Positions 1 through 60,006 of a stretch of 64,000 bases of DNA are shown here, piece by piece. A program made the position numbers and the translations under genes. This DNA is from an uncultured virus (IMG/VR IMGVR_UViG_3300049791_000126) (taxonomy: Duplodnaviria > Heunggongvirae > Uroviricota > Caudoviricetes). The stretch's first letter is position 1, and each line of letters starts with the position of its first letter. The notes under the pieces were generated by a model that searched no databases, was not told the DNA's origin, and worked only from the letters and a program-made list of their open reading frames with translations. The DNA lies in IMG/VR virus record IMGVR_UViG_3300049791_000126; one strand, written 5' to 3'.

Positions 1-39
1 ACTTTGGGGCCTCCTAGCGAGCGCCAAGAGCCCGGCGTA

Positions 40-586
40 GTCTCGGATTCCGTCGGCCCCGAGCTGCCTCCACACCGAAATAGGCTCGTCTATTGGGCCA
101 CTTTCGAGACCTGGTCTCGGATTCCGTCGGCCCCGAGCTGCCTCCACACCGCTGCAATTGAGTAGGTCATGTACCAGCTCCAGGTATTGTCTCGGATTCC
201 GTCGGCCCCGAGCTGCCTCCACACGTGCGGAGGCGCAAGAAGGACTGATCAATGACCACACCGTCTCGGATTCCGTCGGCCCCGAGCTGCCTCCACACTT
301 GCGTCGATGACTCCGATGACGAGACAGATCAGCCCGTCTCGGATTCCGTCGGCCCCGAGCTGCCTCCACACATCTCGCCGTCCGCGTGGTCGGACAGAGT
401 GACCAAGTCTCGGATTCCGTCGGCCCCGAGCTGCCTCCACACTCGCCGAAGCACGCGGTGTAGATGACGGTCTTCATGTCTCGGATTCCGTCGGCCCCGA
501 GCTGCCTCCACACCCGCTACCGTCCGATCCACTCCGCCTGGGATCTGATGGTCTCGGATTCCGTCGGCCCCGAGCTGCCTCCACAC
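40..586 (-). CRISPR. CRISPR array: 8 identical 36-nt repeats (GTGTGGAGGCAGCTCGGGGCCGACGGAATCCGAGAC on minus strand) and 7 spacers of 35-39 nt; 1-39 is probably a further spacer cut by the window edge
   Basis: Exact repeats at 40-75, 114-149, 189-224, 263-298, 336-371, 407-442, 478-513 and 551-586. CTCGG/CCGAG hairpin and GAGAC 3' end. Orientation inferred from the adjacent co-directional effector gene. Confidence 0.98.
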
Positions 587-654
587 AGGTCTAGTTATCA
601 CAGAACGATTCCGACCACTTACAGGACGGATTGCGAGCGGTTCGAAAATCGCCT
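587..654 (-). promoter_or_regulatory. Short CRISPR leader between the effector stop codon and the first repeat
   Basis: 68-nt non-coding gap between the stop codon (655-657) and repeat 551-586. Confidence 0.6.
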
Positions 655-2120
655 CTATCCAGCCGCGTCGAGTAGCTGATTCTTCGCGTTATTTGCATCC
701 TGATCCCAGGCAGCACCGCAGCTCTCGCAATCGAGCCGAAGCTCACGCGCCTTGTCCCATTTGCAAAGCGCACCGCACGCATGACAGGTGAGCGTCCGCT
801 TGGCAGGCTTCAAAAGCTCACACCGTTTCCCGAACACCGCCTGCACCTCGGCCCGCAAGTAGTGCGGCTCCACCAGGAACCTATAATGGCGCGCGGCGGG
901 AATGTCGTCTTTGTTCGGGGCGCGCGTGACGACGCTGCGCATATCGAACGCTTCGTTGATGACCGAGTCGTAGCTCGCGGCGAGTTTTCTCGCCCACAGG
1001 CGATAGATCTCCCGGCGCGAGCGCAGCACGGACGTATACTCGTCGCGCTCCCATTGGTAGAGATGCCGATCGCGGCGCGCCCAGTGCTCTGCATCCTCCG
1101 GCGCATGATTGGCCGCTTGCTCGAGGGTGAAGCGAATCTTGCCGAGCCCCGGGTGAGTGGCATCCGGAGAAGCGAGCGCCTGGCGGCGTGATTTCGTCCG
1201 GCGTGCTGCGTCGCCGAGATACGCGTCAGCGACCTCATCGGCGAGACTACGTAAGGATTCGGCGTGCCTCTGCCGACCGATGAGCGATTCCGGGATCACG
1301 CAACTCGTCTCGTTGCCATCGTCATCCACCGCGTAGGCGACGCGGATGCCGCCGTCGACTCGGCGCCAGCCGAAGTTCACGGCGCAGCGACCGAGTCCGC
1401 CTTGAGCTACGTGCGCGCGGGGAGCGGCGTCGATCGTGAGGTGCACCGAATAGACCCAGCGATCACCGATGCGGTCGATCATCAGCCGCGCAAAGATCAC
1501 GCGCACGTCGTACGGCACTCCTTCCTTCTCGGCCCGCTCAGGGAGCGGCCGGTGATAGGCGATGGGGATCTCGAGCGAGAGTCCTTCGCGAAGACGAAGC
1601 GTCACCGTTCTGTGCTTGCCGTCGCCGGAGATCTGCACCGGGCCAGATTTTGAGAGCACCGCGCTTGCCTTGAGACCACTGCACCCCTGCACGGTAGCGG
1701 CGAGTAATCCTTCCCCGTCGAAGCGCGATGCCGGGGGCGAGCGCAAGTCATGATGCGCTTGACGAAGTCGTAGCCCTTCTTCGTTGCGCGTTGACGCGCC
1801 TTGAACTCGTCCGCTCGGCGCGTCTTCATCGCGGCCGCAACCATCTCGGTCACGGCCTGCTTCTGACCCCACCCGATGGTCGACGCTTGACCCGCAGCGC
1901 GGCAGGCGGCGTTGTAGGCCAACCGATGCTCGGTCTTCTGCTCGTCAGAGAGAGGCGCCGCTTGGTCTATCTCGATGATGTCTCGAGCGGCGATGCGCCA
2001 ACGCTCGACTTCGATGAGCGCGTTGTAGAAGACGTTCGAGTCGCGCTGGTAGGCGAGTAAATCGGCGAAGGATCCGCCGATGACCTTGGGTTTGAGCGCG
2101 CCGTATTTATAGACGATCAT
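655..2120 (-). CDS. Compact type V CRISPR effector, Cas12m (V-U1)-like TnpB derivative, ~488 aa when a 1-nt frameshift near 1723-1737 is corrected
   Basis: ORFs 1602-2132 and 655-1872 join at ...CARP/RFDGEG. N-terminal VYKYG, HRPLP, RuvC-I AVNFGWR, RuvC-II VINE, CxxC...CxxC zinc finger, RuvC-III WDQDANNAKN. Adjacent to the array. GGAG precedes ATG 2120. Confidence 0.82.
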
Positions 2121-2179
2121 GATGTAAGTCACTCCAGGAATTTGGGAAATGTCTCAGCTCTCCCGTAGGTGCTGAGCTA

Positions 2180-2416
2180 CTACGTCAGATCTTCCAGAAG
2201 CTTCCTCGCCACCTCGCGCATGGCCGTGAGCTGGTCATCAGGGATCTCAATCGTAATCACTCCGGTGCGGGCAGCCGAGCGTATCTCGCTGAAGGAGCGC
2301 ACTTCACTGAAGAAGCGATCAGCGCTCGGCCAGCCACCGCGTTTGGTCGTCACCACCTGGATCGAACAGCCGACGGGGAGAGCGATCGTGACGCGCGTCA
2401 GTTTTTCAGTAGACAT
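2180..2416 (-). CDS. Hypothetical protein upstream of the cas gene
   Basis: 78-aa ORF in a tight co-directional run. Confidence 0.55.
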   Translation of the reverse strand: MSTEKLTRVTIALPVGCSIQVVTTKRGGWPSADRFFSEVRSFSEIRSAARTGVITIEIPDDQLTAMREVARKLLEDLT

Positions 2417-2423
2417 TCAGCGC

Positions 2424-2708
2424 TCACTGGACGACCGAGCCGCATTGGCAGAGCGCGAGCGGAGTGCCCGAGCCCCATTCTTCCACGAACCTTTCAGCAA
2501 CCGCGATGGCTGTCTGCAGGTCGGGCATCTTCCCGATGAGCTGATGCGCATGAGAAGCGAGCACGTGCTCGACCTCACCCAACTCACCAGCCGGCTTCGT
2601 TGTCTCGAGCGCAACCAGCGTAAGCTCATCGACCTGTAACGAGACGACCAATACGCGCTGGCCCACCACGCGCCGTAAGGACAGCTGCGAATACGCCACC
2701 CAATCCAT
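2424..2708 (-). CDS. Hypothetical protein
   Basis: ATG at 2708 overlaps the stop of the upstream ORF. Confidence 0.55.
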   Translation of the reverse strand: MDWVAYSQLSLRRVVGQRVLVVSLQVDELTLVALETTKPAGELGEVEHVLASHAHQLIGKMPDLQTAIAVAERFVEEWGSGTPLALCQCGSVVQ

Positions 2709-2929
2709 CAGGCCAACCTCCCGACCTGATGATCGATCTTCAGCTGCGCCGCGATCATCCATTTGCCCGTGTGGATCAGGAGCGCGTGCATGCTCGTCGG
2801 GTTTTTCTGATAGCTCCGTTCGAGATCTTCTCGCTTGTCGAACGACACGTCTTCGAGCGCGGTCCACGGCCAATCACCAAACATCCAGCTCTCCATCCGA
2901 AAGGGGAGTTCGTCGCCGCCGCTCGTCAT
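2708..2929 (-). CDS. Hypothetical protein
   Basis: 73-aa ORF with overlapping start/stop on both sides. Confidence 0.55.
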   Translation of the reverse strand: MTSGGDELPFRMESWMFGDWPWTALEDVSFDKREDLERSYQKNPTSMHALLIHTGKWMIAAQLKIDHQVGRLA

Positions 2930-3123
2930 CGAGCGCGCGCGGCCTTCGGGAGCGAAGCCTCCCGCGTGGCGCGGAGTCCCTTGATCAAGATCTCCGTGTA
3001 TGGGACCGAGCGTCCCTCGGCCTCTGAAGACTCTGCCTTGCAGGCCTTCAGGTACTCATACTCCGGAGTCTTGAGGCGCACCGTAATCGTGTGGTAGGGC
3101 TTCTTCGTGGTCGCTTTCGCCAT
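2926..3123 (-). CDS. Ribbon-helix-helix-like DNA-binding protein heading the gene run that ends in the cas gene and array
   Basis: TITVRL beta-strand followed by two helices (PEYEYLKAC...YTEILIKGL). Confidence 0.6.
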   Translation of the reverse strand: MAKATTKKPYHTITVRLKTPEYEYLKACKAESSEAEGRSVPYTEILIKGLRATREASLPKAARAR

Positions 3124-21672: not shown

Positions 21673-22000
21673 TTGCGACCGCATACTGAATCGGAGCGAC
21701 ACCGTCGCACTCGCAGATGAACGCGTCCTGCGCGATGGCGAGCTGGCCCACTGCCGTATTGAACGACGCAAGCGACTGCGTGACGACGACTGCATTGTCA
21801 CCCTTGGACAGGATGCTCGCGGTCACCTGCGTCCCCACGTCCGTGCCGACGGTAACTGCGATGGCGAGCGACACGCGATAGAGGCCCTTCGGCGGCGTCA
21901 CGAGAGTGGTCACGCCGATGGCTACATCTTGGTTTTTCAGGTAGATGTTCGCGAGGCGTCCGATGGGAAGCGTCCACGGGCCTGCTCTCAAATCGCTCAT
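21602..22000 (-). CDS. Small beta-rich putative virion protein
   Basis: Coupled to the collagen gene by an ATGA overlap. Confidence 0.6.
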
Positions 22001-25000
22001 GACAGGTTCTGGGCTCCGACGTAGGTGATGCTCAAGAGATCCTCAGAGGCCTGGAAGAAGTAGCGGGCGGGCACATCCGTGCTGAGGATCGCCCTCAGAG
22101 TGACGCTCGCGAACTGCACCGTGAGGGTATGGCCGTTGGTGCCGTAGACATCGATCGGAAGTAAATCGAGGGCTGCGGCTCCCGTGAGGCTCAGCTGAAT
22201 GATGCGGTCGGCAGTCAGCGTTGGGATGGCGAGGTAGAGCCGATCCGCCGTATTGAACGTGTAAGTCGTCGCCGAGTCGAGGAGCTGTTGAGCATTTGGC
22301 TCGGTCTGATCGAGTGATACGAGCGGCGTCAGTGTCGCCGTGACGGAAGCCTGGCCATTGCCCGACGAGAAGAGACTCCGCTCGCTCATCGCGTCGAGCT
22401 GAATGCCCATCGACGAGCCAGCGAGGTTCACTCGACCTGAAGACTTCGGGCCGAAGCTCGTGTTCCGGCAGTTGAATACTGCCCAGGCGCCACTGATCGA
22501 ATGCGAGAGCGTGGCGCCGGTGCCGACCTTGCAACCAGACAGAAATATCTGATTCGTGCCGGTTGCTGCGGTGATGTCCAGATCGATCGTGCAATTGTTC
22601 AGGCGGCTGATCGTTGCCGCGCCAGCCGGTGCCGTGATCCCCTGTCGGAACGAACAACCGTCGCAGAGCAGCGGACCCGCAGTCACCGTGTCGACGAACA
22701 CGCAGTAGTTGAACGTGTGCGGCGTTGCTTCCCCAGCAGACGCTTGCGAATTCGAGAAGGTCGCGTTCACGAACACGTACTCACCAAACGCTTGCGACAC
22801 GAGGGAGATCTCTGCCGTGCTCATGCCGTCCAGGCGCGCGCTCGGCAGCACCGAGCTCATCCGAAGGACCGTGTTGGAAGCGCCCGACCCAGAGCCCTGA
22901 ATGATCCCCGCCTGCACGTCGATGAGCTGGATGTTCGATTGCACTGATGAGGCGTCGGTGATCGAGTTGGTGGTGCAGTTCTGGAGCGTGAGATTGAAGC
23001 CCGGGGTCGTCGTGAAGGTGAGATTCACGAAGGAGAGGGCGATCGTTTGATCGGTCGGGCCGCAAAGCCCGATGAGCGTCACATCGCGCGCAGTGTTGAT
23101 CGTCCAGCCGCCATAGTTGCCCGGCGCGACGAGCAGCGTGACGCTGCCGGTCGTGTGTGCTGCGAGGGCGGCTGTCGGCGTCGCGTACGGTTGCTGGATC
23201 GATCCAGTGGCTGCGCCGACGTTGGCAGCGTCCACGTAGAAGACTTGCGTCAGAGGCCCGACGGTGGTCGACCCCTGAAAGCCCTGCGTACCGGTTGCGC
23301 CTTGGAAGCCTTGAAAGCCCCGCGCACCTTGAAAGCCCTGTGCGCCTTGAAAGCCGCTGCCTTGGAAACCCTGAACGCCGGTCGCGCCTTGAAAGCCCTG
23401 ACCACCTTGACGGCCTTGACTACCTTGCGCGCCACCCGCACCGAGCCCACCTTGGAAACCTTGGGGGCCCGTGGCACCCGTCGCGCCTTGCGCACCGGTC
23501 GCGCCTGTATTGCCCGCCCCGCCCTGCGCGCCCTGCGAGCCAGTCGTGCCCGTCGACCCAGTATTTCCCTGGCGCCCTTGGGCGCCCTGAAAGCCTTGCG
23601 CGCCCTGGGCACCGGTCGTGCCCGTCCCGCCAGTAGCTCCTGTCGCGCCCTGGAAGCCTTGAGTTCCGGTCGCTCCTTGGAAGCCCTGCGCGCCCTGGAA
23701 ACCGCCGCCTTGCGCGCCTTGATTGCCTTGGGCTCCGGTCGTACCCGTTGCGCCCTGCGCGCCCTGGCTACCGGTTCCGGTTGCTCCTTGGAAGCCCTGA
23801 GCGCCGATGCCGGCTTGCGCGCCCTGCGCCCCTTGGAAACCGCCACCTTGGAAACCCTGGGCTCCTTGAAAGCCCTGCACGCCAGTCGCACCTTGGGCGC
23901 CCTGCGCGCCGCCGCCGGCGCCCTGCGCGCCGATGCCGCCTTGCGCGCCTTGGAAGCCCGCGCCCTGCGTACCTTGAGCACCTTGGTTGCCTTGCGTTCC
24001 GATCGCACCCTGGAAACCTTGCGCGCCCGTCGCGCCCTGAGCTCCTTGCGACCCCGTACCCGCTGCGCCTTGAAATCCCTGCGTTCCGGTCGCGCCCTGG
24101 AAGCCCTGCGCGCCCTGCGATCCGGTACCGGCGGCGCCCTGGAAACCCTGCGCACCCTGAAAGCCACCACCTTGGAAGCCCTGCACGCCCGTCGCGCCCT
24201 GAAAACCCTGGCCGCCTTGGCGACCCTGGCTACCCTGCGCCCCGCCGCCGTTTTGGCCCTGGAAGCCTTGCGTTCCGGTCGGACCCTGCGCGCCTTGCGC
24301 TCCGCCGCCAGATCCCTGAAACCCCTGCGCCCCTTGAGTGCCCTGCGCACCCTGGAAGCCCTGCGATCCACTGGTCGCAGTCGGATCGGGATTGATCCCA
24401 AACACGCACGCGGCGCGCGGGAAAAAGGTCGACGCGGGCACGTCGGAATAGTTCAGGTTGTGGCCCGTCAGCGAGAGTTCTTGCGTCGCGAGGATCCCGA
24501 GTAGGGACACTGCCGTCGTCGTAGCAGTACATCCACTGTCCAGCTGGAACCCAATCGAGTAGGCCGCGCCAAACCCGAACTGTTGGCCCGCTACTTCGAG
24601 CGTCGTCCCAGCGGCAAGCGACACCGCAGAGCTTGCGATGCCATTGACCCACTCTACGTCATTGAGTCTAGTTGTGGCACCGCTGGTCGAGACCACGCCA
24701 CCCAAATGAAGGGTGCCGCCATTGAAGCAGTTGGCGTGAGCAAATAAAACCGAGGTTTCGGTGATGAACTGACCCTGGACGACACATCCGAAGAACACTG
24801 GTTGAATCAGCTGGAATGCGCTCAACAACGACGCTGTCGAGCGGCAATTCCGGAGCTGGATATTGCCGTTCACCCGACATGATCCGCTCCCTCCGCCTAT
24901 CTCACACTGCGACAGCTTCATCGCCGCGCTACCCACGATGAAATCTTCGATATCGCAGCCGTTTGCCAGGATGATATCGGAAATCGTGAGCGTTCCGCCA

Positions 25001-26805
25001 ATCGGATTTCCGTTGGTCCTGATCTGTACCCGCGCAATCGTTGTGGTCAGCGTATCGACCACACACGTCGTGCCAGCGGCAATGTTGACCGCGGTGAGTC
25101 CCGACTCGAGGAACCAACTCTTCACGAACGTATCGGTAGCGCTCGTGATGCCAGTGCTGTAAGTGACCGCGCCGACGCTTGCGCCGCTCGTCGAGCGAAT
25201 GCGCTTCTTGTCCACGAACGTGCCCGACGCAGTCGTGATCCGGCCGCGCACCGGCGTCGCTGTTGGTACGGTATCAACGACAGTCGCAAGCGTGATGGGC
25301 GCGCTGCTCGTCACCGCTCCATTGATCGTAAGCGAGAACGCCGTGCCCGATGGAAAGGAGACGTTGAACGCGATCTCCCCGTAGGAGCCCGCCCCAATAG
25401 TGATCGTCGTATTTTGCCGAACGACGTATGTCTGCCCGCCAGGAGAAAGCCTCCGGCACAGCTCCTCCGTCGTCTTCAGCGCAGTGATGCTGGACGTGCC
25501 GTTGTTCGTGTCGTTGCCCGTCGCATCGTCCACGAACCAACCCGCCACGAACGCATTGGCGAGATTGACGAGCCCCAGGCGCTCCCACACATTGCCGGCG
25601 ACGGTAGTCGCCGCGACGACCTGAGTCGCGTCGATCCCGGCCGTCTCACCGGCGGTCGGTGATTTGTTTAGGCGATAGAGATCACCCACGGTAGCCGTGT
25701 CGGCGAGCGTGCCCGAAGTGAGCCCCGTCGTGTCGACGGCCTGGAGAGCCGCAATGCTCGCGGGGTTGATCTGCGCCGTGCCGCCCTGGGCACCTTGAGC
25801 ACCCTGCGCGCCGCCACTCGAGCCCTGCGCACCTGCACTACCTTGAGCGCCTTGAAACCCAGCGCCCTGCGTACCCTGCGCGCCCTGATTGCCTTGCGCG
25901 CCCTGAAAGCCCTGCGATCCTTGCGCGCCGCCGCTCGGTCCCTGTGGACCCGTCGCGCCCTGCGAGCCGGTGACGGCTTGACCTTGGAAGCCCTGAGTGC
26001 CTTGGCCGCCTTGAGATCCTTGGGATCCCTGCGTGCCCGTCGCGCCCTGAAAGCCCTGAGTCCCCGCGCCCGTCGCGCCTTGGAAGCCCTGCGTCCCGGC
26101 GGCGCCTTGAAAGCCCTGGGCACCCTGGTTGCCCTGCGCGCCGGTCGTACCAGTCGCGCCTTGCGCACCCTGCGAGCCTTGAAAGCCCTGGCTTCCTTGG
26201 TTGCCCTGAGCGCCCGTCGTTCCAGTCGCGCCTTGGTTGCCTTGCGCACCCTGCGCGCCGCCGCCCGAGCCCTGGCTACCGGTCGCGCCCTGCGCGCCCT
26301 GAAAGCCGCTGCCCTGAAAGCCCTGCGCGCCCTGAAAGCCCTGGACGCCAGTCGCACCTTGGGCGCCCTGCGCGCCGCCGCTCGGACCCTGAGGCCCCGT
26401 CGACCCCTGCGCGCCCGTGACCGCTTGGCCTTGAAAGCCCTGCGCACCCTGGTTGCCCTGAGCGCCTTGCGTGCCCGTCCCGCCCTGCGATCCCTGGAAA
26501 CCGCCGCCCTGAAACCCTTGCGCGCCCTGGGCGCCTTGTCGGCCTTGCGGACCCTGGTTGCCCTGCGCGCCGCCACCCGCCGGAACCCAGCGACCGATAT
26601 TGCAGATCGGCTTGATGATGAGCGGGGGGTTCGGCGGAGACGTATCGAACTTGTGGAGCTCGTAGTGCTTGAGCTCGGATTCGACATAGGCAAAGCACCC
26701 ATCATCGAGAATGGCGGTGCCGACATTCTCGAGAGAGTCGCCCGCCCCGAGGAGGGTCGTGACAGCTCCAATATTTCTACTAGCCACGCTGGATCGATCG
26801 GTCAT
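21997..26805 (-). CDS. Collagen-like fibre protein, 1602 aa: N-terminal module, two Gly-X-Gln blocks, each followed by a beta-helix-like domain
   Basis: Long [12 protein letters not shown] triplet runs (about 25780-26570 and 23270-24370); FVDDATGND and FYVDAAN...GS..PY motifs typical of beta-helix starts. Confidence 0.92.
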
Positions 26806-26966
26806 GGGATAAAGGACGGAGCTTTGCGATGCTCTGCCGTCCCGTTGCTCGGATCCCGATGGAACCGACCCAAACCTGGCCTAGTGGAGGAAGCCTACCT
26901 TGCCCGAGGCCCCCGGCTCAAGTTTTTGGGTTGAAGTTCGAGATCAGGCTCTGGCAGAGTCCCCGG

Positions 26967-27596
26967 ATGGCGCTCCCATCCACGAATTTCCATTCACGCA
27001 CACCGGCTCTCCTGGTAGTCGACAACTTTTACCGGTTTCCGGACGAAGTCCGCGACGAAGCGCTCGGGGCGGAGTACGAGGCCGACGGGCGCTACTTCAA
27101 AGGGCTCCGATCAAAGAAAAAGTTTTTGTATCCCTGGGTGAAGGAGGAGTTCGAGCGGCTACTCAGGGTAACGATCACCGACTGGCTCGACCAGCCGGCG
27201 AACGGTTCCTTCCAGAAGACCACGATCCAGGATCCCCTCGTGTGGCACTCCGACACGCAGAGCTATGCAGCAGCGGTGTACCTCACCGACCATCGCGACT
27301 TTTTCTTCAATACCCACGTTCCCGATGTGCGAGTCGGCGCCGGCACGAGCTTCTGGCGGAACAAAGTAACCGGCGCGCGGCGGCCGCCTTCGGGCGCGGC
27401 CGACTACCAGGAGACGTACAGCGAGTTCAATCTGACGCACCCGGACAACTGGGAGCTCGTCGATCGCGTGGGCTCGGTCTACAACCGCCTCGTGCTCTGG
27501 GACGCGCAGTTGATTCACTCGGCGACGAGCTACGAGAGCTTCTCCTCAGAAGATCCGCGCCTCGTGCAGCTCTTCTTCTTCAACGTGGCGCGGTGA
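26967..27596 (+). CDS. 2OG-Fe(II) oxygenase-like protein (DUF6445-like)
   Basis: VVDNFY..PD.VR, HSD, GTSFW, YNRLVL, IHSA and RLVQLFFF. Confidence 0.78.
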   Translation: MALPSTNFHSRTPALLVVDNFYRFPDEVRDEALGAEYEADGRYFKGLRSKKKFLYPWVKEEFERLLRVTITDWLDQPANGSFQKTTIQDPLVWHSDTQSYAAAVYLTDHRDFFFNTHVPDVRVGAGTSFWRNKVTGARRPPSGAADYQETYSEFNLTHPDNWELVDRVGSVYNRLVLWDAQLIHSATSYESFSSEDPRLVQLFFFNVAR

Positions 27597-27601
27597 TCCG
27601 G

Positions 27602-28282
27602 ATGAAGACCGTCATCTACACCGCGTGCTTCGGCGATCACGACCAGCCCGCTGAGCTTCCAGGCTTCGAAGGCCAAGCCGATCTGGTCTGCTTCACCGAC
27701 TCGCCGACGCTCGCGCGCGAGCGCTCCACTTGGAGCGTGATGCGGCGCCGCTCGCGCTTCAAGACCGCGCGCATGGACGCGAAATGGTACAAGATGAGCG
27801 CGAGCCATTTGTTTCCGGAACACGATTTGTCGATCTACATCGACTCGAGCGTGCGCTTCCACAAGACCGAGGGATTCATCGAGCATTGCCGGCACTCGAT
27901 CGGAGGCAACCGACTTGCATTTTACTCGCACCCCGAAGGGCAACGCACCCTTCGCGAAGAGGCAGTTTTCTCCATGTCGATGGGGAAATACATCGGCGAG
28001 CCCCTCATCGAGCAAGCCTGCCACTACTACGCCGCCGGGTACCGCGACGCAGAGCTGCTCGCAGGAGGGTGCATCGTGCGTTGGCACTTCGACGCTTACA
28101 ACGAAGACATCGTCTCACGCTTCGAAAAGGCGTGGTTCGATGAGTGCATGCACTGGTCGGCGCAAGACCAGATCTCACTTCCGTATGTGCTACAAAAGGA
28201 AGGGATCGCGTACTCTCTGCTCCCCGGCAGCATCTACCAGAACGATTACTTCTCGCGCGTCTGGTCGGGTCCCGATCGCTAG
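27602..28282 (+). CDS. DUF616/TOD1-MUCI70-like glycosyltransferase; target of CRISPR spacer 443-477
   Basis: VIYTACFGDHD, CFTD, HLFPEHDLSIYIDS and DQISLPYVL. Confidence 0.8.
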   Translation: MKTVIYTACFGDHDQPAELPGFEGQADLVCFTDSPTLARERSTWSVMRRRSRFKTARMDAKWYKMSASHLFPEHDLSIYIDSSVRFHKTEGFIEHCRHSIGGNRLAFYSHPEGQRTLREEAVFSMSMGKYIGEPLIEQACHYYAAGYRDAELLAGGCIVRWHFDAYNEDIVSRFEKAWFDECMHWSAQDQISLPYVLQKEGIAYSLLPGSIYQNDYFSRVWSGPDR

Positions 28283-28857
28283 ACCGTTGCTGGAGGCGGC
28301 ACCCAGGCGAGCTTGGTCATCGTGGCCGAGATGTCCTGCGCTGCCTCCTTACAGAACGTGATCACGAGTTCTTGGAATTCTCGGTTCCGGGTGTGGAGTA
28401 GCTGGTGCATCGAGTAGCCGTAGCCCGAGTTGAAGTGGCAGCTCAACCCATTTGGGTTGTACTCGATGTCGAGATGGGGCGCGTTCTGCATCCGCCAGGT
28501 GCGGTCGAAGTAGAAGAACGACATCTCGACGACTGGCGGCCAGGCGTGACTGAGATCACCAAAGGCTCGCCCGCTGAATCCGTAGGGGCAGGTGACGGTC
28601 GCCTTCGCGTCGACCTTCATCACACGGTAGAGCTCGTTCATGAAGTGAATGCGACCGGGTGGGTCGAGGTGTTCGAAGAAGTGCGAGCAGTTCACCTCCT
28701 CGATCTGATCGTCCCCGAACGGCCAGGAGGCTCTGCCGAGATCGAGGAGCAGATCGACGCCGGGCATCTGAAGCTGATCGATGCCGAAGAAACCGGCACG
28801 TTTGTTCTTGCCGCAGCCGAGGTCGAGCTTGGTCACTGATGTGAAATCGGTCGTCAT
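28279..28857 (-). CDS. Class I SAM methyltransferase
   Basis: LDLGCG, SHFFEH and NELYRVMK. Confidence 0.85.
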   Translation of the reverse strand: MTTDFTSVTKLDLGCGKNKRAGFFGIDQLQMPGVDLLLDLGRASWPFGDDQIEEVNCSHFFEHLDPPGRIHFMNELYRVMKVDAKATVTCPYGFSGRAFGDLSHAWPPVVEMSFFYFDRTWRMQNAPHLDIEYNPNGLSCHFNSGYGYSMHQLLHTRNREFQELVITFCKEAAQDISATMTKLAWVPPPATV

Positions 28858-28861
28858 TGAG

Positions 28862-29593
28862 TCACCACATGAAATCGGGGATGCCGAAGTCGCCTTTGAG
28901 ATCGTAGTGACCGACTTTGACCGAGCAGTCGATAGCAAAGCGGTAACCGCATTTTCTAGCGTCGGCGGCGAAGTAGAGATCTTGGGTCGAGACGCCATCC
29001 TTTGTCTGCGTCTTAAACCACGGCCTCCGCAGTCTCTCGTCCTTGAACATCTTCATGCGCCAGAGATTGAAGCCCATCCCGGTGCCGTTGCACTCGACGA
29101 GGCCGCCGGCAGGATCGGGGAGCTGGGGCCGAAAATTCATCAGGGGGTCTTTCACGTCGCCCCAGATTTGAGCGCAGCCGTGCGGCCCCTTGGTGAAGTA
29201 GAGGCCGCCGATGCATGCGTACTCCGGATGCGCTTCCATCTGCTCACAGAGCTTGATGACTCCATCACCCGGAGGCGCGTTGTCGTGCTCGATGGTCAGG
29301 ATGTATTCCCACTGCCCGAGTACGGGATGGTTCACGACCGACTCGATCGCGCTCGAGTAGGCATCTCCCACTTCCATACCGAGCGCGAGCATGCGGTGCA
29401 CCCCGTTGTTCGGGGGGAAGGCGAGGCACAGGTGCGATAGATAGACGCGAGTCGCGATCGTGTCGGCGGCGGGGATGATGACGACGATCCGCTGGTGCTT
29501 CCAAGATCCGCCCTTGAGCAGACGCGCAGTCGTCGCGTCGAGATCGGCGTTATGGGCCCCGCCGACTTCCTGCATGACGATCTGAGGCTTCAT
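28862..29593 (-). CDS. GT-A fold glycosyltransferase
   Basis: IEHDN, GGLYF, GMGFNL, QDLYF and VKVGH. Confidence 0.75.
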   Translation of the reverse strand: MKPQIVMQEVGGAHNADLDATTARLLKGGSWKHQRIVVIIPAADTIATRVYLSHLCLAFPPNNGVHRMLALGMEVGDAYSSAIESVVNHPVLGQWEYILTIEHDNAPPGDGVIKLCEQMEAHPEYACIGGLYFTKGPHGCAQIWGDVKDPLMNFRPQLPDPAGGLVECNGTGMGFNLWRMKMFKDERLRRPWFKTQTKDGVSTQDLYFAADARKCGYRFAIDCSVKVGHYDLKGDFGIPDFMW

Positions 29594-29641
29594 TCCTGAG
29601 CCACGAGCTGTACCAAAGAAGCCGTGGCTTGGGAAGAGCCG

Positions 29642-30352
29642 TCACGCGGTCGTGCACGAGAAGCGGCTCGTCCCTGCAGACACGGAAGCGGGCAGCGACC
29701 AGGCCGAGAAGGCCGAGCCACAGAAGAGCGTCGGATCGTCGGGGGTGCCATTATTTTGCCGAAAGAAGGCCAGGCCCGGATTACCGACGCGAAAGAGCGC
29801 AGCGTCCGTCACTGAGCCGAAGACCGTCTCGACGCCGCCACGGATCATCGACACCGTGACGGTGCCCATGCTGGTACCCGTGTTCAGCGTGAGTTGAGCT
29901 GCTAGGATGTCGCCGTTGTTGATCCCGAAGGCGCTCGCGGTGGACGAAAAATTGGCCACCTCCAGTTCGAGGTAGCGAGCGACGAAGCACAAGATCCCGA
30001 ATTCCCCCAGCGTCAAGTTGATCTCGATGCCATCGGTGTGCGTGTCACCGAAATGCGGGTGCCGTAGCGCGCCGACCGACATACCGAGCAAGATCTCGAC
30101 CTCGAGATCTCCAACCGGCACGCCCGCTTTATGGATCGTCAGCTCAGCGCGATGATCGGATGGAAAGGCTTGCAGGAACGCCTGTGAGTCATTGAAGAGC
30201 GGCGGCACCTGTTGCCACTCGTCTCCGGTCTGCGTTCCAAAAACGAGCCCAGGCGTGCACTGCACCGCGGACTGGAACGGATCGATCCCAGTCGTAAATG
30301 GGGAGGCGAGCTTGGCTTGCGTGCCTGGGAACGTGGTCGAGTAACTGGTCAT
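29642..30352 (-). CDS. Putative beta-sandwich virion protein
   Basis: Beta-prone composition; downstream of the fibre gene. Confidence 0.55.
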   Translation of the reverse strand: MTSYSTTFPGTQAKLASPFTTGIDPFQSAVQCTPGLVFGTQTGDEWQQVPPLFNDSQAFLQAFPSDHRAELTIHKAGVPVGDLEVEILLGMSVGALRHPHFGDTHTDGIEINLTLGEFGILCFVARYLELEVANFSSTASAFGINNGDILAAQLTLNTGTSMGTVTVSMIRGGVETVFGSVTDAALFRVGNPGLAFFRQNNGTPDDPTLFCGSAFSAWSLPASVSAGTSRFSCTTA

Positions 30353-30362
30353 GGGACGGACT

Positions 30363-31079
30363 TCATGCGGTCACGTAGTGATAACCGATAACGTTGCATC
30401 CCGTACCCACTGTCTCGGTAGGCTGCGTCGCTGCCGTCTGCAGCGTCGGGACCGCGGTCCAGTTGCCCGCCGTGCCGCCATTGGTCGTGGCGGTGGCGGC
30501 GTTGAGGAGTTGAAGATAGTGGAGGTTCGTGCCGGCGGGAGCCGTGTCGATATTTTGCGTCGCAGTGAGGAGCGCCGCGTCCGACATCACCACCGCTTGG
30601 CAGAAAAAGTCTCGCACGTCCGCGTCGGTGGCGCTCTCACCGAACTGATCGGTCCCGAGGAAAAGCGATCCCGCGTTCGTGATCTGGGTCGTGAGCGTAA
30701 AAATCACCTGCGCCCAGGTCGTCACATTTTCCAGTCGATAGCGAAGTGTGTAGCTCGCTGAGCCAGAAGCATGGCTGAGCGATATGGCGATCCAGTTGAG
30801 ATTACTCGCCGTGAGCACCGTCTGCGTCTGCACCTCGACGCCGCCGTCGCGAAACACGAACGCTTCCACCGTAGTATTGGCGGCAGCGGAGACGACGATG
30901 CCACCGCCTTCAGAGGCTCCCCCCGTCGACCCCCAGCCCTGGATCGCTGAATCCGCGCCGCCGCCATACTGGCCGGCGTTGCATTTATACCACCCGCCAT
31001 AGGTCCAGTTGCCTGTGATGGTCGGCTGCGTCGCGCTGCTGAGCGACGATCCTCCTGTACACCGAACGCTACTGGCCAT
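30363..31079 (-). CDS. LamG/concanavalin-like lectin-fold protein
   Basis: WTYGGWYK, WIAI and LFLG pattern. Confidence 0.55.
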   Translation of the reverse strand: MASSVRCTGGSSLSSATQPTITGNWTYGGWYKCNAGQYGGGADSAIQGWGSTGGASEGGGIVVSAAANTTVEAFVFRDGGVEVQTQTVLTASNLNWIAISLSHASGSASYTLRYRLENVTTWAQVIFTLTTQITNAGSLFLGTDQFGESATDADVRDFFCQAVVMSDAALLTATQNIDTAPAGTNLHYLQLLNAATATTNGGTAGNWTAVPTLQTAATQPTETVGTGCNVIGYHYVTA

Positions 31080-31083
31080 CGGC

Positions 31084-34000
31084 TTACTGCGTGCTCACAA
31101 ACTTCATGTAGGGGACGACCGTGCCCGATTGCGTGATCGCGCTCATGGCGATCGTCGCCGGGAGCACCGTCTGAGCGGCGGCTGAAAACTCACCGAGCGC
31201 GATCATCCAGTTGGCGCCTGCTCCGACACCGATGGCGTTCGTGCCAGAGTTCGAGGAGGCTGAGCCCAAGGGGGCCAGGTTCGTGAGCGTCATGGCGTTT
31301 CCGATATAGCTCTGGCGAAAGCCCGGATCGTTGGAGGAGCTTGATTGGCGTTCGAAGAGCCCAAGCCAGTACTGACCAGGGCTCAACGTCGATCCCACCG
31401 GGAACTGCAGGAGGTTCATGCCGATGTAGTTCGTACCGACGGTCCCGCTCGTCGTGCGCGTGCCGTAAGAGTTCGAGGCAGTGGTCGTCGGTTGATTGAT
31501 CGTGAACGACACCCCGTTTACGCTGAGACCCATGCTGTAGGTGAGGCTCGTCAGTGTCCCGAGCGTGCTAGAATTATTTCCGGTGCCGCGTGAATAGATC
31601 GCGTACTGATTGGTGATGGACACCGATCCAGCAACCGCGACCAGCCCCACGAACGACACCGACTGCACGACGTTGAGCCAGCCAGCCGCGACGTGCACCG
31701 GGATCACGAATGGAATGAGTCGCGCATTTCCAGAAGTGCCGGTCTGCGCTGAGAGCGCTGCCGTGCCCGTGTTGTGCATCGGGTAAGGCTCGAAGGTCGA
31801 GATGACCGGGGACGAAATGTCGATGGATCCGTTCGAGAAGCCGACTGAGATGCCGCCCAGGCCGTTGAGCGAGAGCGTGCGCGCATCGAAGGTGCTGCTC
31901 GAATTCTGGGTCGTATTGCCAACCGCAAACCAGCCTTCAGTCTGATTGGTCTGCGAAGCGACGGACGCCGTGATCGTCGTCGCTCCGGCCGAGCCGAAGG
32001 TCACGCCGTTCGAATTCACGAAAGAGACGGTGCCGTTCGGGACAGAGAGATCGATGGAGCCGTTCGAGAAGCCCGCGCTGATGGCGCCAATCGCGTTGAA
32101 CAGCAAGCTGCTCAGCGCAAGGGACGTGCTCGAGTTCTGCGTCGTATTGCCCGTCGCAAAGAACGTCGCCGCCGTCCCACCTCCGCCACCACCGGTTGCG
32201 CCGCTGATCACCATCGATCCGTTGGTGAAGCCGACCGATACGCCGCCCGCGCCCTGGAACGAAAGACTCCGCGCATCCACCGTCGTCGAGCTCGAGGCGC
32301 CCGTCGTTTGGCCAACGGCAAACCAGCCCTCACTCTGTGCGGTTTGCGCAAACGACGCCGTGACCGTCGTCGCATTGGCGGCGGTCGACGTGCCGAAGAC
32401 GACGTTGTTGGCGTTCGAGAAAATGAGCGATTGGCCAGCGACCGATAGATCGACAGAGCCATTCGAGAAACCGATGCTGAGGACGCCGAGGCCGTTGAAG
32501 GTGACGCTCCGCGCGTCGAAGCTTCCAGATGTGTTCTGGGTCGTGTTGCCGGTCGCGAAGAAGCTCAGCGTATTGACGCCGCCGGTGCCGGCCGCACCTT
32601 GGAAGCCTTGGAATCCCTGCGCGCCCGTCGCGCCTTGGAATCCCTGGGCTCCCTGAAAACCCTGCGCGCCGGTGTTACCCGTCGCGCCCTGAAACCCTTG
32701 AGCTCCCGTCGCGCCTTGGGCGCCAGTGGCTCCCTGAAACCCTTGGGCCCCTTGGAAGCCCTGCGCGCCCGTGGCGCCCTGCGCTCCTTGGAAGCCGCCA
32801 CCCTGAAAGCCCTGGGCGCCCTGGAAACCCTGCACGCCAGTCGCGCCCTGGTTCCCTTGGGCACCCTGCGCGCCCGTCGCGCCGGTCGCGCCTTGGAAGC
32901 CCTGAGCACCCTGAAAGCCGCCACCTTGGAAACCTTGCGCGCCTTGAAAGCCCTGGGTTCCGGTAGCACCTTGGAAGCCCTGCGCGCCCTGAAATCCCTG
33001 GGTTCCGGTAGCGCCTTGAGCACCCTGGAAGCCGCCACCCTGGAAGCCCTGCGCTCCCTGAAACCCTTGTACGCCGGTCGCGCCTTGGTTTCCTTGAGCA
33101 CCCTGCGCACCTGTGTCGCCGGTCGCACCTTGGTTCCCTTGAGCACCCTGGAAGCCGCCACCCTGGAAGCCCTGCGCCCCTTGAAAGCCCTGGGTGCCGA
33201 TCGATCCCTGGAAGCCCTGCGCTCCCTGAAAGCCTTGCGATCCAGTGGCGCCCTGGAAGCCCTGCGCTCCCTGAAAGCCCTGCGCGCCAGTCGCGCCTTG
33301 GTTTCCTTGAGCGCCCTGCGCACCTGTGTCGCCGGTCGCTCCTTGATTGCCTTGAGCACCCTGGAAGCCGCCGCCCTGGAAGCCCTGCGCTCCCTGAAAG
33401 CCTTGTACGCCGGTCGCACCCTGGGCGCCCTGCGCGCCACCACCAGCGCCCTGCGCGCCGGTGCCACCTTGAGCGCCCTGAAAACCGCCCCCTTGAAAAC
33501 CTTGCGCGCCCTGAAAGCCTTGGACGCCCGTCGCGCCCGTCGCGCCCTGGGCGCCCTGCGTGCCCGCTCCGGTTGCACCTTGATTGCCCTGGGCGCCTTG
33601 CGTGCCCTGCGCGCCTACCCCGCCTTGGTTGCCCTGTGATCCCTGATTTCCCTGAGATCCTGTGGCTCCCTGAGCGCCCTGCGCGCCGACTCCGCCCTGC
33701 GCGCCCTGCGCGCCAGATCCCTGGGCGCCTTGCGCGCCCGATCCGCCCTGAAAGCCCTGCGTCCCCGCCGCGCCTTGCGCTCCCTGAGATCCAGCGCCTT
33801 GCGTGCCCTGGGCGCCCTGGCTACCCTGGACTCCGGTCCCGCCCTGGGCGCCTTGAAAGCCTGCGCCCTGAAAGCCCTGCGCGCCTTGTCGGCCCTGCGC
33901 GCCCTGAAAGCCCTGCGCGCCGATGCTGCCGCCAGTGGCGGGCACCCAGCGGCCAGGGCCCGCGATCGGCACAATGACGAGCGGGGGGTTGGAAGGGGCG

Positions 34001-34164
34001 GTCGAATCGCGGTGGAGCTCGTAATGCTCGTGTTCAGATTCGACATAGGCAAAGCAGCCATCGTCCAGGAGCGTCGTGTTAACGTTCTGGAGCGATTCGC
34101 CTCCGCCGAGGAGCGTCGAGACGGAACCGATATTTCTGCTGGCAACGCTCGATCGATCGGTCAT
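31084..34164 (-). CDS. Collagen-like fibre protein (~1026 aa) with Gly-X-Gln block, four ~42-aa repeats and a C-terminal head
   Basis: [14 protein letters not shown]-terminus identical to the 26805 gene; collagen block about 32590-33925. Confidence 0.92.
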
Positions 34165-34299
34165 GGACGGGGAAGGATTCTTGGCCGCAACGCACACCGC
34201 GGCCTGATCTCTACCGTCCTGATTCGAGCAGCCGCCCGAATCCCGATCGAGTGGGAGAAGCCTATCCCGATGGGGGAGTAGGCCGCAACTTTTTGGGGG

Positions 34300-35730
34300 C
34301 TAAATCTCGACGAGCCCCATCGGCTCGTAGCCGTCTTTCAGGGCGACTAGGTGCGCCTCTACGTACGGGATCGCGTGCTGCTGGTGGAAATCGTCCGGGT
34401 AGAACGTCCGCAGACGAATGGCCTGAAAGCGAGCCTCGAGCCTGCTCAGGTAGCGGGCGTGACCGCGTTTCGTGTAGTACCAGAAAGAATTTTCGTTCCA
34501 GAAGGAGACATGGGTGGGGTCCTGGAAGGCGCCGCGGCCGGCGCTCGCGACCCAGTGGAAATCGCCGCCGTCGGGCGCGACCAGCGTGTCTTTGATGGGA
34601 GTGCGGATCATGGGGCCCGTGGTCGATGGGACGCGGATGAGGAAGAAGCCACCGGGGGCGAGCACCCGGTAGGCTTCGTTCATGGTGTGGACGGGATCTT
34701 TGAGGTGCTCGATGGCGTCGTGGGCGCGGATGACGCCGACGGAATTGTCTTCGAGCGGCCAGCGCTCGTCGAGATTGTGGCCAAGATTGATGTCGAGCGG
34801 CTCGTAGCCGGGGGCAGTATCGATTGCTCCGCAGAGATCGATCATTTTTAGCGGGCCATCGTGCGGCTCCACTCCAGGCGGGGAGACGTAGAGCTCGCCC
34901 TGCGCGAACTTCTCCGCCAGCGCGGTGATGTTGTTGTCGTACACGTTTTGAGTGAGCTGCTGAATGAGCGCGTTGTCTCTTGCCACCGTGTTTCCCGCGT
35001 GGACGCGATAGAAATACAAACACTCGGGAATGTGTTTGAAGGTGAGCCCTGAGAGAAACATGCGCACGATCAGATCGTGGTCGTCGATGACCGGGAGCTC
35101 TGGGTTGTGGCCGCCCACCGCCCAGTACGCAGCCTTCCGCCAAGCGCGGAGGTGATTGGGGGACCACTCGACGCGGCGGAGATTTTGCGGGGTCGCGGGC
35201 GGCTGCACGTGAGCCTGAAGCTCGTGGCCTTGGAAGGTGACGGGGTACGTCTTCCATCCGTATTCAGGGGAGTAGGTGTTCGGGATCCAGCGAGCGTTTT
35301 GATACGCTGTCCGATGCGCTTTGATCTGAACGGGAGTCAGATCCGGATCGCGTTCGATGGCGGCCAGATCGAGCGGGTAGTCCACCTTAAACTCCGCCGT
35401 GTCCGAGTAGACGAAGTCCGCATGCTCGAGGGCCGCGAGGGCTTTCTCGAGTGCGGTTTCGTGGAGCAAGTCGTCGTGGTCGAGCTCGAGGAGGAAGTCA
35501 CACTTGGCGAGCTCGCAGCAGCGGCGCTTGATGGCGCCGATCCCTTGGAGCGCCTCGTCGCTGTAGACCTGCACTCTCGGATCTTTGCGGATCTTCTTCG
35601 GCAGCACGCCGCCATGATTCTCGAGCACGACCCATTCGAAGTCCTGCACGGTCTGCGCCTTCAGCGTCTCCCAAGCGGCTTCGATGTAGTGGTTTCCGGA
35701 GGCAGTGAGCGGAGTGAAGACACTGATCAT
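34300..35730 (-). CDS. GT2 glycosyltransferase fused to a methyltransferase-like domain
   Basis: ISVFTP, ELDHDD, DDHDL, YRVH; C-terminal HDAIEHL...YRVLAPGG...DPTH. Confidence 0.85.
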   Translation of the reverse strand: MISVFTPLTASGNHYIEAAWETLKAQTVQDFEWVVLENHGGVLPKKIRKDPRVQVYSDEALQGIGAIKRRCCELAKCDFLLELDHDDLLHETALEKALAALEHADFVYSDTAEFKVDYPLDLAAIERDPDLTPVQIKAHRTAYQNARWIPNTYSPEYGWKTYPVTFQGHELQAHVQPPATPQNLRRVEWSPNHLRAWRKAAYWAVGGHNPELPVIDDHDLIVRMFLSGLTFKHIPECLYFYRVHAGNTVARDNALIQQLTQNVYDNNITALAEKFAQGELYVSPPGVEPHDGPLKMIDLCGAIDTAPGYEPLDINLGHNLDERWPLEDNSVGVIRAHDAIEHLKDPVHTMNEAYRVLAPGGFFLIRVPSTTGPMIRTPIKDTLVAPDGGDFHWVASAGRGAFQDPTHVSFWNENSFWYYTKRGHARYLSRLEARFQAIRLRTFYPDDFHQQHAIPYVEAHLVALKDGYEPMGLVEI

Positions 35731-35748
35731 AGCGCGCGAGCCTACCGA

Positions 35749-36561
35749 CTACGGATGCGTTTGGATAGTGGGAATGAAGCGCGGTTGGCCCACGACGCGG
35801 TATCGGGTAGGCGTTTTCTCACCCGTCACGATCTCGATATCGATCTCGCCCGCCCCCGTCACCGGGAACTCCAGCGTGTCCGTGTGGAGATGACCCGCAA
35901 TGAAGCGCCCACGCGTCTGCTCCCAGGTGTGCTTCGCCCCCGCGTACGAGCGCCGGTAGAGGTAGTGGTAAATGGAGAGGCCGCGGAGACGCGCGCCCTG
36001 GGCGCGCATGCGGTCGCACCAGTCGATGTCTTCGGCCGGTACGGCGCGGTACGGGAGTGCGGTCTCCGCCCAGCCGCTGATCGTGCCGCCAGTAAACCAG
36101 GGAGCGGGATCGAGATTGGCCTGGAGGCGTCCCGTGAGGAGGAGTTGGGGGGCGGGATCTTGGATGTCGTCGCCGAGCGAGACGAAGTGGCGCTGCTTAC
36201 CGAGCGCATCGTACGAGCGTGCATGGCCAGCGACCTCGTCGAGGTAGCCCGGACCGTACCAGTCATCGTCATCCATCGTCGTGAAGAAACCACCGCCCTG
36301 TTTTTTTATGAAGTCGAGGGCGGCATTCTTGGCGTGGGAGACGTGCTCAGGCGAGTGCAGCACGAGGCACGGCGTAGGCTGCGGAACCGATCCGAGCGCG
36401 CCGCCATTTTCGACGATGATCAGGCGCTTGCCGATGAAGCGCTGCCGCGCAAAGTTCCCGAGTACGCGAGCAAGGTGCCCAGGTCTCGAGAACGGCACCA
36501 CTACCCAGATCTTGTCGATCTGAGATGGGAGCGGCCCCGGGTAGGGCTTGAGCAATGCCAT
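35749..36561 (-). CDS. GT2-like glycosyltransferase
   Basis: VVVPFSRP, MDDDDWY and ED motifs. Confidence 0.75.
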   Translation of the reverse strand: MALLKPYPGPLPSQIDKIWVVVPFSRPGHLARVLGNFARQRFIGKRLIIVENGGALGSVPQPTPCLVLHSPEHVSHAKNAALDFIKKQGGGFFTTMDDDDWYGPGYLDEVAGHARSYDALGKQRHFVSLGDDIQDPAPQLLLTGRLQANLDPAPWFTGGTISGWAETALPYRAVPAEDIDWCDRMRAQGARLRGLSIYHYLYRRSYAGAKHTWEQTRGRFIAGHLHTDTLEFPVTGAGEIDIEIVTGEKTPTRYRVVGQPRFIPTIQTHP

Positions 36562-38414: not shown

Positions 38415-38510
38415 GCCCGGGTGAGGATACTCGGGAGCCGGGAGAAACGAAAGTTTTGGGGGTGACCGGGCAGTAAACTGCCTCCTTTGGCCGCATGGTA
38501 TCGTCTCAGT

Positions 38511-39083
38511 ATGAAGAGATTCCAACAGGTGCGTTACGAAACCTCGCTCATCATTCCAGCGATTGGGCTGCCATCCCCTGGCGTGATCGGGAAAGTCTAT
38601 TTCCACGATGCGGACCGCATCCGCTTCGAGCCCTCGGATGGAATGCTCCCAGCCAAGTCGTTCGTGGTTTGGGATCGCGGAAACGCCATGATGCAAGGCG
38701 AGCACGGGTCGTACTGGACCGTAGACCGGCTCGTACTGTCCGAATCAGCCAGAGATCTCGTCCTGCACCAACTCGACATCGGCTGCCGCCTGTACGTCCG
38801 AAATATTTCTTCGAGTCACTTCATTGGTATGAGGGCGCCTGCTCGGGAGGACGAGGACTCACTCATCGCTCAGTTGCAGGACTGCTTCCGCTACAAGGAC
38901 CACACGCGAGAGGATTTCGCGCGCGCGATCAATCTCCTGCGACCCAAGCACCAGGTACTCGATTGGCCGACTACGCCCGCGCGTCAGAGTTGGGATCTGT
39001 CGTTTTACAATCCGACAGACCAGCCAGTGGCGTTCAGCGCTACGATCGCGGGCGAGTACGTCACCACCTTCGATATTGACTGA
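38511..39083 (+). CDS. Hypothetical protein
   Basis: ~190-aa ORF with slightly lower GC. Confidence 0.55.
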   Translation: MKRFQQVRYETSLIIPAIGLPSPGVIGKVYFHDADRIRFEPSDGMLPAKSFVVWDRGNAMMQGEHGSYWTVDRLVLSESARDLVLHQLDIGCRLYVRNISSSHFIGMRAPAREDEDSLIAQLQDCFRYKDHTREDFARAINLLRPKHQVLDWPTTPARQSWDLSFYNPTDQPVAFSATIAGEYVTTFDID

Positions 39084-39467
39084 TACTCCTGTGCTCAGGA
39101 GGGGTCGAGCCCGTGGCTGGCCGTGTCACAGCCCTTTGGACTCAGGCTCGACCCCATGCGTTTTACATGCCCTTCGACCCGCATGTTCCTGAACCGAGGA
39201 TCGCCCGATTCAGTGAATCTTACTCAGCAGGGCGGAGAAGGATGTTCCCGTCGACCTCTGGCGGTAAACTTGGCGAATCGAGATGAGCCGCATGCCAGTT
39301 ACGAGTTTTCTCCGCGAGCGCTAGCAGCAATTCCGCCGTCGCAAACGCAGCCTCATGCGTTTCAAATTCGACCCGCATCCCAAATTCTCCCGAAGGATAA
39401 ACCACCTTCACTGCATTGGCTCCAACGGGTAATGTGATCGTATCAAACCAAAATCTAGGGTACTGGG

Positions 39468-40370: not shown

Positions 40371-40444
40371 GCCCGATCTTATGCTCGCGCGCGCGTGGAC
40401 CTTCCGCAATGGGCGGACATAGAATGTCCGGAACGGGGCGCCGC

Positions 40445-40612: not shown

Positions 40613-40644
40613 AGACTGGCAAGTCTAGCATGAGGTGCGCTTGG

Positions 40645-41697: not shown

Positions 41698-41786
41698 TCC
41701 GAACGGAATCGCGCGAATCGCAGGCGTTTTCTAGGGCTAACTCAAATTGACCCATTACCAAATCTAGCCATGTTCGTATCTACCTT

Positions 41787-60002: not shown

Positions 60003-60006
60003 GCCG

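Follow-up and report, generated by a model that had tools for sequence, protein, structure and literature searches.

The closest described relatives of the effector treated here are the Cas12m proteins of type V-M. According to the accessible portions of two papers, Cas12m proteins with DED, HDD or NDD active sites bind DNA and silence it without cutting (PMC11013384, PMC10442227). Their PAMs have been given as TTN, YTN, YTTS and TTV, and are T- or C-rich overall, in the accessible text of three sources (PMC10442227, PMC11013384, bioRxiv 10.64898/2026.03.26.714355), and the accessible parts of two preprints held no data on strand dependence of Cas12m. A preprint on MvCas12m, as far as its accessible text goes, calls its case the first phage Cas12m (bioRxiv 10.64898/2026.09.14.751636). 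The phage locus described here combines a frameshifted, compact relative of Cas12m with an array in which one of the two newest spacers matches its own carrier perfectly and the other very likely does so as well.

Self-targeting spacers on bacterial chromosomes were reportedly described by Stern et al. in 2010 as autoimmunity accompanied by decay of cas genes, in systems that cut their targets. Medvedeva et al. are said to have found in 2019 that archaeal viruses carry mini-CRISPR arrays whose spacers match close relatives and serve kin exclusion by means of host Cas proteins. Silencing with spacers acquired in trans is a feature of type IV-A3 systems, and pairing of the guide with the template strand at the start of an ORF is the orientation that is effective for dCas12a roadblocks.

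The window, that is, the whole stretch of DNA that was analysed, comprises 64,000 nucleotides of an uncultured virus assigned to the Caudoviricetes (IMG/VR record IMGVR_UViG_3300049791_000126). It is collinear over the whole 64 kb, at ~65-87% identity, with 25.7-91.4 kb of G002, a complete IMG/VR genome of 135,429 bp with terminal repeats and 100% CheckV completeness. This relative has a 23-repeat array (22 spacers), an intact effector and, 33 kb further on, the glycosyltransferase gene. We infer that the window belongs to a near-complete soil phage genome of ~132 kb (131,781 bases) opened at the array, since the 67.8 kb beyond the window fit what is left of the G002 circle. The term phage is used here on the strength of the IMG/VR classification together with terminal repeats, integrase, DnaB, sigma factors and fibre-like collagen genes; no terminase, capsid or portal gene was recognised in the window or in the part of G002 that is non-syntenic with it. 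Searches against GenBank phages gave no match to the window array and a single distant match to the effector (Virus Rctr197k, 31.6% identity), so the family appears to be uncultured. The effector profile had no match among genome contigs and thus gave no clue to the host. Two segments of the window, 38466-41780 and 49182-54353, are missing at the syntenic places of both G002 and a further IMG/VR relative, G001; one includes an IS1-like transposase gene (39468-40409), the other has genes for an ABC ATPase and for an OmpA-domain protein of 672 aa.

Features of the array, the effector gene and the self-matched region in the window (positions in nucleotides from the first letter of the window)
Feature	Position	Strand	Remarks
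CRISPR array	1..586	-	8 identical 36-nt repeats and 8 spacers; transcribed from the effector side
Spacer 2	443..477	-	35 nt, second from the leader; crRNA sense equals 27602..27636
Spacer 1	514..550	-	37 nt, leader-proximal
Leader	587..654	-	between effector stop and first repeat; same layout in relatives
Compact Cas12m-like effector gene	655..2132	-	RuvC triad Asn-Glu-Asp; reading frame disrupted by a 1-nt deletion
Effector frames	2132..1602 (N-terminal); 1872..655 (C-terminal)	-	two frames of one gene
Missing base (frameshift)	1725..1726	-	relative to three intact homologues, which read CG(G/C)-CGC
Degenerate repeat-like hairpin	2151..2180	-	solitary; lies ~19 nt before the start codon of the effector
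Collagen-repeat fibre-like gene	21997..26805	-	1602 aa
DUF6445 / phrog_1644 gene	26829..27596	+	upstream of the glycosyltransferase gene and co-oriented with it; stop at 27596
Intergenic gap	27597..27601	+	TCCGG, 5 nt; side of a would-be type V PAM
Spacer 2 protospacer	27602..27636	+	first 35 nt of the glycosyltransferase ORF
TOD1/MUCI70 (DUF616-like) glycosyltransferase gene	27602..28282	+	intact, 226 aa
Collagen-repeat fibre-like gene	31084..34197	-	1037 aa

The exact repeat occurs in its eight copies at 40-586 (plus-strand letters), with spacers of 35-39 nt. The window opens within the array, and the first spacer stretch (1-39) is cut by the window start or abuts it. No adaptation genes were found within the 64-kb window, and the exact repeat had 0 matches among viral contigs, a set in which neither this search nor one with the effector profile recovered the window's own contig; nor did the effector profile recover it among metagenome contigs. 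Read on the minus strand, which is that of the effector, the repeat folds near its 3′ end into a 6-bp stem with AC after it, and the loop pairs with three bases on the 5′ side of the stem in a 3-bp pseudoknot. This combination of stem and pseudoknot exists on the effector strand only. Across 13 repeat variants of the family the pairing was kept in 117/117 cells, with compensatory changes in five of the nine pairs; the covariation score was reached by none of 500 shuffles, and pairing in slid controls went down to 31-44%. In the main array of G002, the eight effector-proximal repeats are identical but for one single-letter change, and the distal fifteen vary. The strand of the hairpin and this gradient of repeat variation place the leader on the effector side and thereby set the numbering of spacers 1 and 2. 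Transcribed from that side, spacer 2 yields a crRNA of mRNA sense, whose pairing partner is the template strand.

Degenerate repeat-like hairpins also stand just upstream of the effector start in relatives, three of them in G002 (28975-29122), separated by 'spacers' of 15 and 25 nt, and two in the related locus L028 (3855-3962). No targets were found for the 'spacers' between such hairpins, which may form a crRNA-like element in the 5′ region of the effector gene. A third relative, G003 (IMGVR_UViG_3300048892_000198), has a second cluster at 110303-110692 (L068 10303-10692), in which 6-7 degenerate repeats alternate with short spacers (17-35 nt). It is located at the other contig end and oriented opposite to the main array, and its spacers had no matches.

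The reverse complement of spacer 2 recurs once in the window, at the start of the glycosyltransferase gene, with 35/35 identical positions and 0 mismatches, and two matches were obtained in 0 of 100 dinucleotide shuffles. It is the only one of the eight spacers with an in-window match longer than 16 nt; the other seven have none. The first base of the protospacer is the A of the ATG of an ORF with a GC3 of 0.79, which matches Pfam TOD1_MUCI70 (E 1.7e-7) as well as a PHROG glycosyltransferase. An earlier note on this DNA had described this match as perfect, as beginning at the ATG of a DUF616-like gene, as belonging to the second spacer from the leader with a crRNA of mRNA sense, and as flanked on its 5′ side by the 5-nt gap TCCGG. 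The match is unique and absent from shuffles, its first base is the first of the TOD1/MUCI70 ORF, the repeat hairpin and the G002 repeat gradient confirm rank and orientation, and the upstream gene ends directly before the gap, so that all of this description stands.

The exact protospacer of spacer 2 is also present in two IMG/VR contigs, those of G001 and G002. Such identity is uncommon across the window: of its 63,966 35-mers, only 268 (0.42%) recur unchanged in G002, and 33 (0.05%) do so in both relatives. These last form seven blocks when the spacer's own array copy is excluded; three of the blocks, the protospacer among them, lie at 27552-27723. The protospacer covers the conserved motif VIYTACFGD in a gene with strong codon bias; by our own estimate, ~1-3% per lineage pair, the bias and the motif explain part of its conservation. 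Had a spacer been acquired at this site from any of the known siblings, it too would match the carrier perfectly. The surroundings, 21997-36561, hold the two collagen-repeat genes interleaved with the DUF6445 gene, the TOD1/MUCI70 transferase, methyltransferase-like genes and a GT2-methyltransferase fusion (34300-35730), and look like a fibre modification cassette.

A second self-match emerged from the Logan contigs of soil run X1. Of the words sampled from 1-3000, 82% occur in this run, which is probably the sample behind the window. A contig of 6,643 bp from this run contains 514-551, that is, spacer 1 plus one adjoining base, at 38/38 with 0 differences. The depth of the contig is 11.7, against 12.1 for the phage contig; the site has non-array flanks that resemble those of the target site in G002, and its 5′ flank is GTC. 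Spacer 1 matches siblings at 33/37 in G002 (flank ATC) and 31/37 in G003 (flank GTC). Given a 38/38 match at the phage's own depth with G002-like, non-array flanks, spacer 1 very likely has a second perfect self-match, in a conserved gene outside the window, an assignment based on equal depth and synteny. Sibling contigs in runs X2, X3 and X4, from two other studies, contain both window protospacers with 0-1 differences. For the G002 genes matched by window spacer 1, by spacer 4 of L028 and by spacer 5 of G002, no Pfam or PHROG family was found.

The effector was compared with known proteins through its intact orthologue in G002 (488 aa). Residues 178-483 of this protein match the Cas12m structure 23vw_A in the PDB with an E-value of 4.2e-36; UnCas12m4a follows at 3.4e-10 and the next match, a TnpB-like protein, has an E-value of 0.058. 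With an AlphaFold model (pLDDT 85.5) as query, Foldseek placed Cas12m2 (8hhl, 8hhm, 8hio) and GoCas12m (8pm4) in ranks 1-4 (E 1e-15 to 1e-17), with Cas12f and TnpB behind them; TM-scores were 0.55-0.65. The effector is thus closer to Cas12m than to other Cas12 or TnpB proteins in both sequence and fold, and it has the Cas12m traits of an adjoining array and a repeat with stem and pseudoknot. It lacks the described size and REC architecture of Cas12m: members of the compact clade are 445-520 aa long, below the ~570-620 aa of Cas12m, and the alignment to Cas12m begins only at residue 178.

The active site sets the compact clade apart. In an alignment of 80 homologues, the RuvC-I position is Asn in 50/50 compact members (435-520 aa), with Glu and Asp kept, and among the 30 larger homologues it is Asp in 18, Asn in seven, His in four and Ala in one; N249, E390 and D475 are invariant in 38/38. 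The canonical RuvC site is Asp-Glu-Asp, and the Asn-Glu-Asp of the compact clade is a combination outside the HDD, NDD and DED given in the accessible text of PMC11013384. On this analysis the effector is a compact and probably binding-only relative of Cas12m. A k-mer scan found an effector-adjoining array, 70-170 nt downstream, in the window and in 21 of 40 related loci. A sister effector clade, L031-L034 (e.g., Ga0265318_10000044, 127 kb; 61% identity), has no array or repeat-like element within 4 kb.

In the window, the effector frame ends ~175 codons in, and both effector frames are otherwise still open. Over 557-3000, a 23,352-bp Logan contig of run X1 is identical to the window (0 differences, 0 indels); as X1 is probably the source sample and its data are contigs, what reproduces the frameshift is a second assembler and not a set of independent reads. 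The X1 contigs leave array bins 1-200 and 301-400 uncovered. In the sibling contig of X3 the alignment breaks exactly at 1725, and the loose end implies an extra base and an intact frame. Programmed frameshifting was rejected by eye, there being no slippery heptamer around the deletion. The earlier note's identification of a Cas12m-type effector, now borne out by the PDB match and the top four fold matches, and its report of an effector frameshift, now seen as one base missing against three homologues and present in the X1 contig, are both upheld. The deletion would be expected to abolish effector function. Because both frames remain open and the eight repeats are identical, any such loss would have to be very recent, or else the gene may still function in another way.

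To place the self-matches among the targets of the family, 79 spacers from nine arrays were searched, at a threshold of E ≤ 1e-5, against the array-masked sequences of ten loci, the window and the relatives G001, G002 and G003. Seven of the 79 match the window, G001, G002 or G003 outside arrays. Spacer 2 of the window is identical (35/35) in the window, G001 and G002, with 5′ flanks CGG, GGA and CCG, and matches G003 at 28/35. Spacer 3 of L028 (flank CCG) matches a DUF1643 gene at 33/36 in G001 and 29/36 in G002, and spacer 4 of the same locus matches G002 at 34/35 (flank CGG). G002 has spacers against its own genome, namely spacer 5, at 30/34 (flank CGT; positions 7 and 10 are mismatched), and spacer 4, over 20 contiguous nt. 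Spacer 3 of G003 matches the N-terminal part of that genome's own effector gene (G003 1850-1887) at 36/38, with a mismatch at position 6 (flank TTC), and sibling effector genes, including window 1974-2011, at 31-33/38 (flank CTC); this guide is thus aimed at the CRISPR effector genes of both kin and carrier.

The arrays of the window, G002, G003 and L028 therefore contain spacers that match close relatives of their carriers. The sites lie in the middle of genes or near their starts; two are in sense and four in antisense orientation, and no strand rule is apparent. The unit of effector and array is conserved across the family, and these sequence matches suggest that it serves in conflict among kin. 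In the two relatives with intact effectors, G002 (22 spacers) and G003 (four spacers in the main array, which the contig start cuts), the self-matches are only imperfect (30/34 and 36/38), with mismatches within the PAM-proximal ten bases. With only three genomes compared, a restriction of perfect self-matches to genomes with a broken effector is anecdotal.

The reading that accounts best for these observations, and has roughly an even chance of being right, is that the two newest spacers are derived from self or kin and are tolerated because the effector is dead, or that loss of the effector was selected by self-silencing. By homology, an intact effector would bind DNA under crRNA guidance and block transcription without cutting, and the normal role of effector and array would lie in conflict between kin phages. 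The two newest spacers may have been taken from the phage's own DNA or from near-identical kin DNA, and with the effector killed by the 1-nt deletion the self-matching spacers would do no harm. They could have accumulated after the effector was lost, or the loss could have been selected since the spacers silenced the phage's own genes. With both of the newest spacers matching self and the effector broken, these matches are most likely not a regulatory switch, and the self-match taken alone is most likely a by-product. Of the three alternatives raised in the earlier note, the one linking autoimmunity to the effector frameshift is the best fit, given the reproduced frameshift, the second perfect self-match and the imperfect self-matches of relatives with intact effectors.

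A different account, rather unlikely in our judgement, is that spacer 2 is aimed at the conserved gene start in siblings and that the carrier's own copy is protected by a 5′ flank that is not a PAM. The earlier note had raised this possibility too, and its first half has held up: the protospacer is exact in G001 and G002 and is found in the sibling contigs of X2, X3 and X4, and arrays of the family do match sibling phages. The 5′ flanks also differ between genomes. The five nucleotides before the protospacer are TCCGG in the window, CCGGA in G001 and X3, GACCG in G002 and CCCGG in X2, and in G002 (59902-60068) ~165 bases separate the upstream gene from the glycosyltransferase start, as opposed to five in the window, so that the PAM-side flank is wholly different. 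The 12 flanks available from six spacers have no single motif. The two clearest sets, those of spacer 1 (ATC, GTC) and of spacer 3 of G003 (TTC, CTC), both read NTC and so agree with the published PAMs TTN and YTN of Cas12m, which have a T at -2; the CGG before the window's own protospacer lacks this T. Protection by the flank, the other half of the idea, fares worse. A T at -2 is absent from all five known flank variants of this spacer's target, which leaves spacer 2 with no known competent target; the flank of the spacer 1 self-match is GTC, the same as in G003, and cannot explain why that site would be spared; and with C-rich Cas12m PAMs in the accessible text of PMC11013384, neither CGG nor CCG can be called a non-PAM. 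In this genome, moreover, the broken effector makes the question moot.

That spacer 2 and a binding-only effector repress the phage's own glycosyltransferase, and hence its surface glycosylation, as a programmed switch is improbable. By homology the effector class would be suited to it; pairing of the crRNA with the template strand falls right at the beginning of the ORF and leaves the PAM side upstream; only seven window blocks, the opening 35 nt of the gene among them, are exact in both G001 and G002; and a second perfect self-match exists for spacer 1. A regulator of this kind calls for a functional effector and for a guide conserved among the relatives that share the target. Instead, the effector is frameshifted, and spacer 2 is found neither among the 22 spacers of G002 nor among the four main-array spacers of G003, although both genomes carry the target; it is therefore not a conserved regulatory guide, and the switch that the earlier note had put forward is not supported. 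Other spacers of the family match mid-gene sites on either strand, and codon bias and the VIYTACFGD motif account for much of the conservation that had seemed to favour regulation.

A slim chance is likewise given to RNA-guided homoimmunity, in which a naturally nuclease-dead compact relative of Cas12m with guides derived from its own or kin genomes would act as a programmable immunity repressor of the resident phage and of superinfecting kin. Its targets would be surface and structural genes, the self-matches would be there by design, and the frameshift would be a recent escape or a variant of the sequenced population. G002 encodes an integrase, so lysogeny is possible.

Least probable is an artefact of assembly or strain mixing, with the array and its targets merged from different co-occurring strains: unitigs across the repeat/spacer 2 junctions in X1 (window 415-504) have a depth of 5.2-7.3 against 12.1 for the flanking contig, the 35-mer common to spacer 2 and its target has a depth of 17.6, and the independent contig on the array side ends near 23.9 kb, in collagen repeats, short of 27.6 kb, but the gene order from array to target is the same over the whole 64 kb in the complete G002, the spacer 1 target is internal to the 6.6-kb contig with 0 differences and no site variant, and all long contigs have a depth of ~12 with no second target allele seen. 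The same depths weakly hint that the array is perhaps polymorphic for spacer 2 in the sample, with about half of the genomes carrying it.

Among known systems, Cas12m of type V-M (MmCas12m2, GoCas12m, PmCas12m) is the best relative in sequence and fold. The likeness extends to the single effector beside an array, a non-canonical RuvC site, and a repeat with stem and pseudoknot, as in the Cas12m2 crRNA according to the accessible text of PMC10442227. Unlike those proteins (577-614 aa), the effector described here is ~100 aa shorter, its first ~177 residues cannot be aligned by sequence, its site is Asn-Glu-Asp and not HDD, NDD or DED, and it is carried by phage genomes of ~130 kb. MvCas12m of myxophage MV-1 resembles it as a Cas12m-type effector with an array in a phage that lacks cas1, cas2 and cas4, and differs in its 610 aa and D-E-D site; its authors, in the accessible part of the preprint, found no protospacers (bioRxiv 10.64898/2026.09.14.751636), whereas the compact Asn-Glu-Asp system has targets in kin and self. 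Unlike those of the one published phage Cas12m, the targets here can be named: they are genes of sibling phages and, in one case, the effector gene of siblings and of the carrier itself.

The CRISPR systems of huge phages, as presented in the accessible text of PMC7162821, are similar in their compact arrays without adaptation genes and in the suggested role of a dCas14-like repressor; they differ in having targets in other phages and hosts, with no perfect self-matches of the carrier, and in using another effector family. Plasmid-borne CRISPR in conflict between plasmids is comparable in its mobile carrier, in often having no adaptation module, and in being aimed at close competitors, and differs in the type of element and the effector class; self-matching is not described in the accessible text (PMC9071438). 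Among the papers listed on Cas12m, self-targeting and phage-encoded CRISPR, within their accessible portions, no compact Asn-Glu-Asp phage clade and no kin or self targets of such a clade were found. The present data point to a widespread, uncultured family of ~130-kb soil phages that carries a very small (~480 aa) relative of Cas12m whose Asn-Glu-Asp site is conserved. DNA binding under CRISPR guidance would then be a testable weapon in phage-phage conflict, and the compact effector may interest tool builders.

The mini-arrays of archaeal viruses differ from the present system in that this phage brings its own effector. The pattern attributed to Stern et al. recurs here in the perfect self-match and the inactivated cas gene; the differences are a probably binding-only effector and a phage as carrier. 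The locus offers a natural case for the question of regulation versus autoimmunity in self-targeting, in a system that would not cut.
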